A DNA stretch of 63,149 nt, taken from positions 1 through 63,149 of the forward strand of contig JBBTTA010000007.1 in the NCBI GenBank assembly GCA_038064475.1. Direction: 5' to 3'. The notes under the pieces were generated by a model. The model worked only from the letters and a program-made list of their open reading frames with translations, did no database searches and was not told where the DNA came from. The stretch comes from Patescibacteria group bacterium. GTDB taxonomy: Bacteria; Patescibacteriota; Minisyncoccia; Phycocordibacterales; EsbW-18. The translations under genes were made by a program, and so were the position numbers. Position 1 is the first letter of the stretch; each line of letters opens with the position of its first letter. Below are positions 1 through 63,149 of the stretch, piece after piece.

Positions 1-177
1 TAATGTGGACAAGACGTTCACATATTCCTATTGAAACGCACGGATAAAATCCTACTGGATTTTTCCTCGTACTCGCGCCGTCGCGCTCGCAAGTCGTTTC
101 AACAGGATAAGCTCACTCACACGTTTAATCCAAAAGGCAAAACCGTGCGTTTCACTACAGACATGCGAGAGACTTTG

Positions 178-250
178 TGGGCGCTAAGGGATTCGAACCC
201 CTGACCTTCTCTGTGTAAAAGAGTTGCTCTACCAACTGAGCTAAGCGCCC
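178..250 (-). tRNA. tRNA-Val (anticodon UAC)
   Basis: The reverse complement folds as a 73-nt cloverleaf with acceptor GGGCGCT/AGCGCCC, T-loop GGTTCGAATCC and anticodon loop TTTACAC. CCA is not encoded. Confidence 0.9.
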
Positions 251-316
251 GACACGAAAAGTATACTGGTATTTCACATTTGGGCAACACTTCACTTTTT
301 TCTGTACAATGGGGGT

Positions 317-1039
317 ATGAAGATTCCAATTCTCTACGAAGATGACAATTTTCTGGTGATTAATAAGCCAGCAGGCCTTATGGTGCATGAGGACGGGCGA
401 AGTGTTGAACCTACACTTGTGGAGTGGATTTTGGTGAATTATCCCGACATCGCAGACGTGGGGGAGCCAACATTTTTGCAAGACGGATCACAAATTGAAC
501 GTCCGGGTATTGTGCACAGAATCGATAAAGACACGTCAGGTGTGTTGATTATCGCAAAAACAATTGATGCGTTTGTTGATTTGAAATCACAGTTTGCAGA
601 ACGACAGATAGAAAAGCAGTACGCGGCATTTGTGTACGGCAATGTTAAAGAAAATTATGACGTTATTAATCGTCCCATAGGGAAGAGCAAGAAAGATCCG
701 CGCATGTGGTCAGCGCAGCGTGGCGCCCGTGGTCAGATGCGCGAGGCCATCACCGAGTATCGTGTTCGTGTGCGCGGTAAAGATGCTTCATATATTGAAG
801 TACGACCAAAAACAGGACGCACACATCAAATTCGTGTGCACATGAAAGCAATCAACCATCCTGTTGTGGGTGATGCATTGTATGCGCCAAAGATGGAACC
901 ACTTTTTGGTTTTAAGCGACACGCACTCCACGCAGAACAAATTACATTCAAAGATCTTTCGGGAACACCCATTACCGTGAAGGCACCATTTCCTCCCGAT
1001 TTTGTGAAAGCGGAGAAAGAAATCAAGAAACAAGGCTAA
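317..1039 (+). CDS. RluA-family pseudouridine synthase
   Basis: 240-aa ORF with catalytic motif HRIDKDTSGVLIIAKT and RTHQIRVH. No S4 domain. Confidence 0.9.
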   Translation: MKIPILYEDDNFLVINKPAGLMVHEDGRSVEPTLVEWILVNYPDIADVGEPTFLQDGSQIERPGIVHRIDKDTSGVLIIAKTIDAFVDLKSQFAERQIEKQYAAFVYGNVKENYDVINRPIGKSKKDPRMWSAQRGARGQMREAITEYRVRVRGKDASYIEVRPKTGRTHQIRVHMKAINHPVVGDALYAPKMEPLFGFKRHALHAEQITFKDLSGTPITVKAPFPPDFVKAEKEIKKQG

Positions 1040-1080
1040 TGCTTGCCCGTACGCCTTCTCCGTGCTAGAGTTTAGGCCTT

Positions 1081-1569
1081 ATGGCAGTGGCAAATATCAA
1101 AGTATCGCCAGTAAACATGGCAACTCGCAAGGCGCTCGACATGCGTTCGGGGGACCATGTTCGTGTCTGGATCAAGATTGAAGAAAAGGGAAAGACACGC
1201 CTCCAAGCTTTTGAAGGTACCGTACTTGCTCGAAAAGGAGGCACAACAGCCGGCGCAATGTTCACGGTTCGCCGTGTTGCTGGGGGTTACGGTGTTGAAA
1301 AGATCTTTCCACTCTACTCTCCATCAATCGATAAGATTGAAATTCTCCGTCGCGTAAAGACACGTCGTGCAAAGTTGTATCACATCCGCGATAAGGCAGC
1401 GAAAGAAATTCGTCGTCAGATGCGTAAGATGCAGACGGTGAACATTACTGCGGGCAACGAGCCAGTCGAAGTTGAAGAGGCTCCCGCCTTCGCCGAGGCT
1501 TCGGCGGGCAAGCCAGTTGAAGAAACTCCAATGAACGAGCCCGAAGTAGTAGTTGAAGAAATAAAATAA
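1081..1569 (+). CDS. rplS: 50S ribosomal protein L19 with acidic C-terminal tail
   Basis: GDHVRVWIKIEE..RLQAFEGTVLARKG..FTVRRV..GVEKIFPLYSP matches L19. Confidence 0.95.
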   Translation: MAVANIKVSPVNMATRKALDMRSGDHVRVWIKIEEKGKTRLQAFEGTVLARKGGTTAGAMFTVRRVAGGYGVEKIFPLYSPSIDKIEILRRVKTRRAKLYHIRDKAAKEIRRQMRKMQTVNITAGNEPVEVEEAPAFAEASAGKPVEETPMNEPEVVVEEIK

Positions 1570-1575
1570 AACGAA

Positions 1576-61452: not shown

Positions 61453-61494
61453 ATATTCCTTTACAGACTAAGGCCTAAAAGCCAGAAAGGGGGG

Positions 61495-61522
61495 TTGACA
61501 GCAAGCTTGTTTCGGCTATACT
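61495..61522 (+). promoter_or_regulatory. rRNA operon promoter
   Basis: TTGACA, a 16-nt spacer, then TATACT. A G-run lies upstream. Confidence 0.75.
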
Positions 61523-61542
61523 TACCAAGCCCTGAAAACAAC

Positions 61543-61576
61543 ACCCTGTTACCAGATGTGTTGGTAACAGGGTTTT
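61543..61576 (+). promoter_or_regulatory. Leader hairpin plus U-tract in the rRNA leader
   Basis: ACCCTGTTACCA-GATGTG-TTGGTAACAGGGT followed by TTT. Confidence 0.55.
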
Positions 61577-61754
61577 ACGTTCTTTGTCATCGCAGCATAA
61601 AGATAGAGTACAAATGTTGCCGGAAGGTGCCACCGCGCTTTCCGGCAGAAACCCGTCTATTTTCAAAACATAGACAAAAAGTGAATAAGAGAGAAATCGT
61701 TTTCGCGCTTTTTCTTTTGTTCCGTTCAATTCAAACACAGCGATGTGTTTATAT

Positions 61755-63149
61755 GTAGAGTTTGATCCTAGCTCAGGATGAACGCTGGCGGCGTGGATAA
61801 GGCATGCAAGTCAAGGGGGCCTAGCAATAGGCAACCGGCAAACGGGGTAGTAACAGGTGGGAACGTACCTAGAAGTCAGGAATAACCTGTCGAAAGACAG
61901 GCTAATACCTGATAGTCTCTTCGGAGTAAAGATTTATCGCTTCTAGAACGGCCTGCTTCGTATCAGCTAGTTGGTAAGGTAATGGCTTACCAAGGCTATG
62001 ACGCGTAGGGGAGCTGAGAGGCTGACCCCCACCACTGGAACTGAGAAACTGTCCAGACACCTACGGGTGGCTGCAGTCGAGAATCTTCCGCAATGCACGA
62101 AAGTGTGACGGAGCGACGCCGCGTGGTTGATGAAGCTCTTCGGAGTGTAAAGACCTTTTATCGGGGAAGAAGTTTTGACGGTACTCGATGAATAAGGGGC
62201 TGCTAACCTCGTGCCAGCAGCAGCGGTAATACGAGGGCCCCGAGCGTTATCCGGAATTATTGGGCGTAAAGGGTGTGTAGGTGGTCATATTAGTCTTGTG
62301 TAAAATCCTGTCGCCTAACGGCAGAACCGCATGGGAAACGGTATGACTGAGAGGGTGTAAGAGGTGTATGGAACTCACGGTGTAGGGGTGAAATCCGTTG
62401 ATATCGTGGGGAACGCCAAAAGCGAAAGCAATACACTGGTACATACCTGACACTGAAACACGAAAGCTAGGGTAGCGAATGGGATTAGATACCCCAGTAG
62501 TCCTAGCCCTAAACGATCTGAACTGGTTTTTCGGAGTATCGACCCTCTGAGAGACGAAGCTAACGCGTTAAGTTCAGCGCCTGGGTAGTACGACCGCAAG
62601 GTTAAAACTCAAAGGAATAGACGGGGGCTCGCACAAGCGGTGGATCATGTGGTTTAATTCGATGCTAAACGAAGAACCTCACCGAGGCTAGACATCCAGA
62701 CGAATCGTAGAGGAAACTTTACGAGCCTTCGGGCGGCTGGACAGGTGATGCATGGCTGTCGTCAGTTCGTGGCTTGAGCTGTTCCCTTAAGTGGGGTAAC
62801 GAACGCAACCCCTATTGTCTGTTATAAGTGTCAGGCAAGACTGCCCCCCAAGTGCGCACAAAGTGCGCAGTTGAAAGTTAAAAGTTTGTAAGTTGATTAG
62901 GTTAAACTAATACACTTCCAAACTTCAAAACCAACAACTGTGTTCGCTTTGCGAATACTTGGGGGGGAGGAAGGCGGGGATGACGCCAAGTCAGCATGTC
63001 CCTCTGATGCCTCGGGCTACACACGTGATACAATGGCGGGTACAACAGGAAGCGACGGAGCAATCCTGAGCCAATCCCAAGAAAGCCCGCCCCAGTTCGG
63101 ATTGAGGTCTGCAACTCGACCTCATGAAGTTGGAATCGCTAGTAATCGC
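61755..63149 (+). rRNA. rrs: 16S rRNA (5' about 1.39 kb; runs off the window end)
   Basis: Starts at AGAGTTTGATCCTAGCTCAGGATGAACGCTGGCGG and ends at GGAATCGCTAGTAATCGC (E. coli position about 1350). The 5' end is approximate. Confidence 0.97.
62850..62960 (+). other. Expansion segment of about 110 nt in 16S helix 40
   Basis: GACTGCCCCCC[AAGT...ACTT]GGGGGGGAGGAAGG replaces the short E. coli hairpin CCAGTGATAAACTGG. The base helix is extended by CCCCCCAAGT/ACTTGGGGGG. There are internal hairpins and no ORF. Confidence 0.8.

Follow-up and report, generated by a model that had tools for sequence, protein, structure and literature searches.

The window described here is the whole 63,149-nt stretch of contig JBBTTA010000007.1 (assembly GCA_038064475.1). 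It contains two classes of protein-coding genes: core genes that almost entirely lack a Shine-Dalgarno (SD) sequence, and small SD-led transcription units that lie between them. Exact-protein look-ups showed the window to form one end of an ENA contig of 323,904 bp, hereafter L001, which comes from the 0.1 μm fraction of Hainich groundwater. Independent gene calls with Pfam matches were taken from ENA/Logan records and gave 56 family-annotated genes, referred to as the core, and 23 unannotated open reading frames (ORFs). Also present are five tRNA/tmRNA genes and a 16S rRNA gene that lacks its 3′ end and covers model positions 1-1345. The closest relatives of the uL4 protein among species-representative genomes were 45-68% identical and came from metagenome-assembled genomes (MAGs) of Paceibacterota, Taylor-, Campbell-, Nomura- and Niyogibacteria, as well as from MAGs labelled solely as uncultured Saccharibacteria. 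Because the best of these relatives belong there, the source organism is, on protein similarity, a Parcubacteria/Paceibacteria bacterium of the candidate phyla radiation (CPR). Other contigs of the source population were 99.98-100% identical, with protein variants that differed by one residue, and strain-level dN/dS and presence/absence comparisons were therefore unworkable.

Two gene classes in the window

The original prediction for this DNA listed a set of SD-led ORFs and two A/T-rich inserts. All of the ORFs exist at the stated coordinates, each preceded by a GGAGG-like motif at a distance of 4-9 nt, and both inserts are real (the first from 33742 or 33814 to 34206). The features are given below in window coordinates, with the G+C content at third codon positions (GC3) of each ORF.

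1628-1990 (+): unit 1; ORF 1709-1945 (78 aa, GC3 0.62), SD GAGAGGAGAC; weak promoter 1628-1656, terminator 1962-1990
22849-23545 (+): unit 2; ORF 22928-23491 (187 aa, GC3 0.51), SD AAAGGAG; extended -10 promoter 22849-22877, terminator ~23502-23540
25480-25891 (-): unit 3, between rpsJ and rplC; ORF 25534-25818 (94 aa, GC3 0.39), SD AGGAGG; promoter 25891-25862, bidirectional terminator 25480-25515 in common with rpsJ
25879-26250 (+): unit 4, between rpsJ and rplC; ORF 25967-26206 (79 aa, GC3 0.66), SD GGAGGAG; promoter 25879-25907, terminator ~26213-26247
29325-29675 (-): unit 5, between rplB and rpsS; ORF 29382-29564 (60 aa, GC3 0.74), SD GGAGGG; promoter 29675-29648, terminator ~29325-29355
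33742-34206 (+): A/T-rich insert between rplE and unit 6, a PemK/MazF-type toxin gene (GC 0.35, no SD); followed by a hairpin at 34218-34235
34422-35257 (+): unit 6, between rplE and rpsN; ORF 34581-35180 (199 aa, GC3 0.86), SD AAGGAG; perfect TTGACA-16-TATAAT promoter 34422-34449, leader of ~125 nt, hairpin 35222-35257
39729-40020 (-): unit 7, between secY and adk; ORF 39779-39991 (70 aa, GC3 0.44), SD GAGGAG; terminator ~39729-39762
47807-48367 (+): A/T-rich ORF (GC 0.34, 186 aa) for a predicted membrane protein; weak GAAAGG 9 nt upstream, bidirectional terminator 48370-48397
49712-50080 (-): unit 8, between infC and ssrA; ORF 49749-50048 (99 aa, GTG start, GC3 0.56), SD GGAGG; terminator 49712-49737
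51132-52104 (+): unit 9, a three-gene operon; ORFs 51195-51413, 51427-51765 and 51765-52067, in order with GC3 0.63, 0.65 and 0.52 and SDs GAAAGGGG, AAAGGAG and GGAAGGGG; promoter 51132-51159, terminator 52085-52104
54498-54905 (+): unit 10; ORF 54561-54854 (97 aa, GC3 0.59), SD AAAGGGGTGA; promoter 54498-54525, terminator ~54881-54903
58519-59223 (-): unit 11; ORF 58568-59143 (191 aa, GC3 0.72), SD GAGAGG; promoter 59223-59196 (TTGACA-16-TGnTATTAT), terminator ~58519-58560
61750-63149 (+): 16S rRNA gene, present up to model position 1345, where the window stops

Hybridization energies (dG) of the SD-led ORFs against a canonical anti-SD ranged from -8.3 to -16.5 kcal/mol. At independently called starts, a GGAG/GAGG core at -18 to -4 was found for 8 of the 23 unannotated ORFs compared to 1 of the 56 annotated genes, a weak case at bL20 (Fisher p=1.4e-4). 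The 17 kb of non-core DNA held 15 combinations of an SD, an ATG or GTG start and an ORF of at least 55 aa, while 200 dinucleotide shuffles gave 1.14±1.08 with a maximum of 5. A naive count of SD-like pentamers plus starts over the whole window showed no enrichment since internal in-frame Met and Val codons dominate such a count. Together, these two results show that the SD signal is specific to non-core space.

The SD-led genes also differ in composition. Their mean GC3 was 0.61 (n=13), compared to 0.44±0.06 for the core (n=56; Mann-Whitney U test, p=3e-5), and their codon choice was strongly unlike that of the core, with NCC, AGR and C-ending codons standing out. The predicted GC3-richness of the set is thus correct on average, but the two distributions overlap, and the ORFs at 25534, 39779 and 22928 look native. 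Strong hairpin and T-run terminators follow 11 of 11 units, and good sigma70 promoters (at least 10/12 matches or an extended -10) precede 7-8 of the 11. The prediction that the cassettes usually have their own promoter and terminator therefore held fully for the terminators and mostly for the promoters. However, the core operons (rpsS, rpsN, tuf, csoR) have the same types of both signals, so these are no mark of foreignness. The class is distinguished solely by its SD, its codon usage and its lack of conservation.

Gene callers disagree on several of these ORFs. The ENA/Logan caller picks opposite-strand ORFs at 25967-26206 and 34581-35180, and NCBI gives non-SD starts for 22928 and 49749. 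At 34581-35180 the predicted plus strand is right, as the ORF has more than 150 homologues, which contradict the opposite-strand ORF 34530-35114(-). At 25967-26206 the plus-strand ORF is more plausible than the alternative, 25910-26380(-), which reads through a terminator, but the assignment is less firm than at 34581. Five further SD-led ORFs lie immediately outside the window in L001, including an operon with a TTGACA-17-TGGTATCAT promoter in which AAGGAGG occurs twice.

Core start signals and the 16S 3′ end

The 20 nt upstream of the core genes contain 15% G, which falls to 5-7% at -10 to -6, and 57% of core genes have a T at -1. A TANNNT motif ending 5-10 nt before the ATG was found at 19 genes with more than 25 nt of upstream sequence, ~17 of them core, against a background of 6%. 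These -10 boxes often read TGnTATACT, and several have a -35 box at a fitting spacing. We infer that TANNNT just before the ATG is a leaderless signature, with leaderless transcription itself a prediction. Within operons, the gaps between internal genes are -7 to +10 nt. An example of this native layout, and the positions at which it repeats, are as follows.

5534-5571 (+): TTGACA-17-TAAACT promoter, with 6 nt from the end of the -10 box to the csoR ATG
317, 4333, 17447, 21310, 45334, 47167, 51108(-), 52134, 55165 and 61425(-): further csoR-like layouts

The complete 16S gene was read from L001, where its 3′ end is GGAU-UUAGUCAAAU. The tail is GGAUUUAGUCAAAU, and the sequence past helix 45 is GGAUUUAGUCAAAUGAC, where the family consensus is GGAUCACCUCCUUU. 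A covariance model aligned helices 44 and 45 (h44/h45) cleanly as far as GGAU. CCTCC (CCUCC) occurs neither in the whole 16S gene nor in the 380 nt downstream, and a search turned up neither a 16S 3′ fragment encoded on its own nor an anti-SD further downstream. The genes past the 16S, such as that for alanine racemase, have the native codon signature and the native promoter or leaderless style; the 16S join therefore looks genuine, which argues against a chimera. The 16S of this Paceibacteria genome thus has no anti-SD. The rplK-rplA region, where a co-occurring loss of uL1 would show, lies outside the window and the fetched flanks. The original claim that the native genes are SD-less is borne out by the core counts and was understated, as it did not foresee a 16S without any anti-SD. 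According to Tsurumaki et al. (2022, RNA 28:1041; PMC9297842), roughly half of Parcubacteria have lost the anti-SD. Our literature search found no paper on translation start in genomes that lack the anti-SD.

Positions, relatives and families of the SD-led units

The SD-led units are scattered at transcription-unit boundaries. Within the S10-spc-alpha cluster they fall at rpsJ|rplC (two divergent units), rplB|rpsS, rplE|rpsN (the PemK toxin gene and unit 6) and secY|adk. When all cassette ORFs were compared by tblastn to 80 syntenic loci, the only match was to the kinase at 58568 (37%, in locus L043); otherwise the units lack counterparts in the syntenic loci of 40 Patescibacterial relatives. 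The cassettes are thus not conserved at the same sites, as the original prediction had expected. In the closer relatives (L007-L027), the junctions that bear units contain variable inserts 0.5-4.8 kb long; among CPR further away, these junctions are compact. The inserts of the closer relatives hold ORFs with well-placed SDs, and the rplB|rpsS junction of L007 has a unit laid out like unit 5 (67 aa, GC3 0.88), although the two small ORFs have no detectable homology. The division into two gene classes is also seen in loci L183 and L184. The units therefore occupy island positions. Neither an integrase or transposase (Pfam calls) nor a flanking repeat family was found at the units. Integron cassettes were considered and rejected, since the units are dispersed with their own promoters, their hairpins are GC stems with T-runs, i.e., terminators, and the window contains no intI.

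The ORF of unit 6 belongs to a large family. All of its more than 150 homologues that have a source name are Patescibacterial. Eighty metagenome loci with homologues were fetched, and in 34 of the 59 that exceed 2.5 kb the 3′ end of the gene is repeated over 110-129 bp at a distance of 300-400 bp downstream. In nine sampled pairs of variable region (VR) and template repeat (TR), 126 of 154 mismatches were at TR adenines. The homologue is followed by RVT_1 in L156 and by bAvd and RVT_1 in L183. The VR/TR pairs and adjacent RVT_1/bAvd genes show that the predicted product of 34581-35180 is a homologue of the variable proteins of diversity-generating retroelements (DGRs), which are abundant in CPR (PMC8144416). 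The window VR (35066-35173) differs from the TR of L183 at 28 sites, of which 23 are TR adenines, which points to diversification by a closely related DGR. Neither a TR nor a reverse transcriptase (RT) for the window copy was found in the window or its flanks (69 kb). The hairpin at 35222-35257 has a 16-bp stem, begins 42 nt past the stop and has equivalents across the family. An AF2 model of the protein reached a pLDDT of 83.5, and Foldseek found no match in PDB at E<1, including the known targets with a C-type-lectin fold.

The position of the DGR target is not conserved: in L183, which holds the closest homologue and whose bL19 is 82% identical to that of the window, a whole DGR separates the pseudouridine synthase gene from rplS, and in the window these two genes are neighbors. 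The promoter of unit 6 and the first ~75 nt of its leader are ~90% identical to those of a paralogue in a relative (window 34450-34540; L184 5860-5950), whereas the core proteins of this relative are 59-82% identical to those of the window. The paralogue is in the same assembly as L183. The near-identity suggests that the leader RNA is conserved or that the module was exchanged recently.

Two further observations concern the DGR targets. Short repeats, CTTTGACCC and CCTTGGACAC, are conserved 0-60 nt past the stop and before the hairpin (L097-L176; window 35181-35221), with perfect 16-nt tandem copies in L162, and may be a cis element of the DGR. Outside the window, L001 648-1268 (-) is a 206-aa SD-led ORF (GC3 0.70) with a C-terminus ending in GGGWFDGWRFLVRA and with CTTTGAAC/CTTGGAATC repeats after its stop. 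It may encode a second, unrelated DGR-type target.

The relatives also made it possible to follow the leaders. Taking the best SD among each gene's first five candidate start codons, 82% of the genes in the DGR-target family had a strong SD compared to 19% of their neighbors (counted over 22 distinct loci no shorter than 6 kb). By this measure, Firmicutes reached 0.8-1.0, and the window and further CPR loci stood at 0.18-0.23. An GAAAGGAG-like block stands at the right distance in ~81% of DGR-target loci, while the remaining leader is variable. The targets had a GC3 of 0.42-0.88, for the most part 0.5-0.77, and the GC content of their loci was 33-56%. The GC3 excess covers the entire target gene, and the RT gene of the DGR has neither an SD nor a high GC3. 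We found no mention in the literature of a family-wide SD and GC3-rich bias of DGR targets that is absent from the RT gene. A second case is an island gene common to L010 and L011 (uL4 69% identical) at rplE|rpsN. Its two proteins are 60% identical, and the AGGAGGACGAACG-ATG leader and spacing are the same in both loci. Comparison of homologues thus shows the predicted SD to be conserved in both of these families.

The other units gave fewer relatives. ORF 58568-59143 belongs to a P-loop kinase family (AAA_17/18, with members annotated as "dephospho-CoA kinase") with 276 matches from CPR and archaea, of which the best reached 48%. A phmmer search of 22928-23491 against 1.84e9 representative proteins returned only the protein itself, and 25534-25818 is an ORFan with no relatives among 1.8 billion representative proteins. 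The ORF of unit 1 was called as a gene, but it forms a protein cluster of 1 and had no match in family searches. Four scans of IMG/VR found no relatives of the cassettes, including 22928 and 49749, and PHROGs gave nothing except a generic kinase match. As for the A/T-rich inserts, 33742-34206 matches PF02452, with no antitoxin ORF recognized adjoining it, and 47807-48367 had no family match.

Several other features were noted in and around the window. Tandem (AACAGAG)n heptads occur on the plus strand at 22784-22814, 29191-29219, 30732-30772 and 33685-33715, directly past the stops of the MS-channel, uL2 and uL5 genes and at the uL22 3′ end, which are island edges; near-matches numbered 17 compared to 6.2±2.4 in shuffles. 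The rplC and rplF leaders (26400-26513 and 36160-36283; also 39633-39656) have a ~24-nt box in common, AAACACGAAGCACGAAAYTCGAAA, and long A/T-rich inverted repeats (TCGAAATCCGAA and TTCGGATTTCGA) that reach the ATG. A repeated palindromic element is one possible explanation, a structured leader another. Upstream of the rplC operon, 26255-26385 contains a TTGCAG-17-TGTATAGT promoter and then the GC-rich hairpins GTCCCGCCCTCTCGGAGAGGGCGGGAC and GCCCCAGCTCGGACGTGTCCGAGCTGGGGC. This stretch has no Rfam match; it might act as a cis-regulatory leader or encode a small RNA. Five independent short assemblies (L178-L182) end 26-88 nt past the uS10 stop (window ~25447-25509), four of them at +88 within the 36-nt palindromic uS10 terminator. 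This is probably an assembly effect, with population heterogeneity as the alternative. A perfect TTGACA-18-TATAAT promoter at 50788-50817 (-) lies within the smpB coding region, ~240 nt upstream of the tmRNA gene (50174-50543). Adjoining pilB, 19217-21244 (+) encodes a 675-aa protein with ~195-nt repeats (FxGTVDFDPG motif) and no family match, probably a repeat-rich surface protein. A gene for a 910-aa protein like DUF8128 and type IV secretion system (T4SS) coupling proteins (41528-44260, +) comes straight after map in a core run. Lastly, a tRNA-Ile with anticodon UAU is encoded at 55028-55102 (-). Such a tRNA is an uncommon bacterial way of reading AUA and usually accompanies the absence of tilS.

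Interpretation and comparison with known systems

The explanation we favor, with moderate confidence, is that this is an anti-SD-less Paceibacteria genome with an SD-free core, to which SD-led accessory units have been added from a Patescibacterial pool, and that their leaders are kept by selection. The acquisition of the units is partly supported. In the core, operon-first genes, whose -10 box lies 5-9 nt ahead of the ATG, would start leaderless, internal genes would start by tight coupling, and leadered ribosomal-protein genes would be read from G-depleted, A/T/C-rich upstream regions without an SD. The core genome would be SD-independent across these CPR lineages, here as far as loss of the anti-SD. 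An SD-led unit would be a small piece of flexible genome, made of a sigma70 promoter, a GGAGG-type leader of 25-125 nt, GC3-rich codons and an intrinsic terminator. Such units may be drawn from a gene pool exchanged among Patescibacteria, many of which would still have an anti-SD, rather than from hosts or phages. The pool appears to hold a DGR target detached from its TR and RT, a kinase and ORFans, with the SD-less PemK insert adjoining. Selection across the lineage would maintain the SD-type leader and the codon bias as properties of gene families. In this cell, the SD would no longer work by 16S pairing, and the genes may be weakly translated or read in another way.

Several points weigh against this explanation. 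A second 16S copy may be present elsewhere in the genome, and the analysis spans 69 kb (window and flanks) of one genome. The anti-SD state of the genomes that carry the families was not scorable, as there was no 16S gene in any fetched relative locus. The lack of mobility genes and repeats at the units, noted above, also counts here. Two tested units are ORFans whose origin is not placeable and whose translation is a prediction. Finally, GC3-rich targets beside a host-like RT gene are not explained by simple transfer.

A first alternative is that the GGAGG-type leader works in this cell, as a 16S-tail-independent initiation route or a regulatory route for accessory genes, with a purine-block-binding protein or another RNA partner as the candidate reader. 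The purine block is the sole conserved part of otherwise variable leaders in ~80 family members, its frequency in the family stands well above that of neighboring genes in SD-poor genomes, and L010 and L011 keep the same SD and spacing. The motif is also intact at 13 or more SD-led genes of a genome that lacks the anti-SD. However, no candidate reader was found, and most of the genomes that hold the families may keep an anti-SD and thus be under ordinary selection. We regard this alternative as possible but tentative.

The original prediction saw the units as acquisitions from SD-using, higher-GC donors that could be hosts or their phages. Taken as an alternative, these acquisitions would be recent and from outside CPR, with signals that have not yet decayed. 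Part of this agrees with what was found: codon usage is non-native with a higher GC3, and the units lie between conserved neighbors and are missing from syntenic loci. The ORFans are of a kind typical of phage-derived DNA, and the SDs are unable to pair with this 16S. The donor part, in contrast, did not hold up, as every source-named homologue is Patescibacterial, or archaeal for the kinase, and two units are ORFans. A phage origin was rejected on the IMG/VR and PHROGs results, and the promoters and terminators are of native type. Nor does the picture of an SD brought along with a donor cassette as a mere relic fit the data, since the SD and GC3 are kept family-wide at 33-56% GC and, in L010/L011, at 60% identity, unlike decaying relics. 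Non-CPR donors are therefore unlikely.

It is also improbable that the 3′ part of the 16S is chimeric, or that a second, canonical rRNA operon exists whose anti-SD serves a minority of genes in a Bacteroidia-like manner. The NCBI contig does break within the 16S, MAG assemblies often mis-join at rRNA genes, and all examined CPR loci are SD-poor whatever their tail. On the other hand, the genes on the far side of the join are native in codon signature and leaderless style, the covariance model is clean through h44/h45 to GGAU, and anti-SD loss is documented in the group (PMC9297842). That the SD-led genes are chance open frames chosen for a nearby SD-like motif is very improbable: the flat whole-window count, ORFans beyond validation by conservation and the disagreement of gene callers at two loci leave some room for it, but the non-core shuffles (15 vs 1.1 expected), a promoter-like site and strong terminator in the right orientation at every unit, and hundreds of homologues for two units speak against it.

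If the GGAGG-type leaders of accessory genes (DGR targets, small ORFans) are still read in a cell without an anti-SD, which is possible but tentative, this would mean SD-like recognition without a 16S tail, or a channel that separates flexible-genome from core-genome expression. Anti-SD loss in CPR has so far been a footnote, and this locus shows how a genome is laid out afterwards. The contrast between core and accessory genes provides a natural test of SD roles beyond 16S-tail pairing and bears on how ultra-small symbionts partition the expression of their flexible genome. On the practical side, gene callers mis-strand or mis-start SD-led genes, and the signature of Patescibacterial DGR targets (SD, GC3-rich codons, 3′ repeats) could help find orphan targets.

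The closest known systems resemble this locus in part. Like the anti-SD-lacking Parcubacteria (PMC9297842), the genome is from Parcubacteria/Paceibacteria and has a 16S 3′ end without CCUCCU; only the missing motif is reported there, and neither the gene-start mode nor an SD-led gene subset is described. The units are similar to genomic islets of acquired ORFans in being compositionally deviant, poorly conserved short genes between conserved neighbors. Unlike such islets, they mostly consist of one gene with a full set of expression signals and lack mobility genes. Units of this type turn up again in relatives at the same operon junctions, and the S10-spc cluster, normally contiguous, is split by several of them. 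The 34581 family matches known DGRs in its C-terminal VRs, downstream TRs with adenine mismatches, RT and bAvd genes and post-VR hairpin. The window copy differs from these in having no TR or RT within 69 kb and a model without a solved-structure match.

For the start signals, leaderless-rich bacteria such as Actinobacteria and Deinococcus, in which leaderless genes are reportedly found, also have a TANNNT -10 box ~7 nt before operon-first starts. In contrast to the window genome, these lineages have an anti-SD, and SDs are common on their leadered genes. Bacteroidia, which are said to be SD-poor with few SD-led genes and to include a case of rpsU autoregulation, have similar A-rich, G-poor upstream regions and a small set of strong-SD genes. 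They keep the anti-SD, which the window genome lacks, and whereas their case is a ribosomal-protein gene, the SD-led set of the window consists of accessory and ORFan genes with non-native codons.

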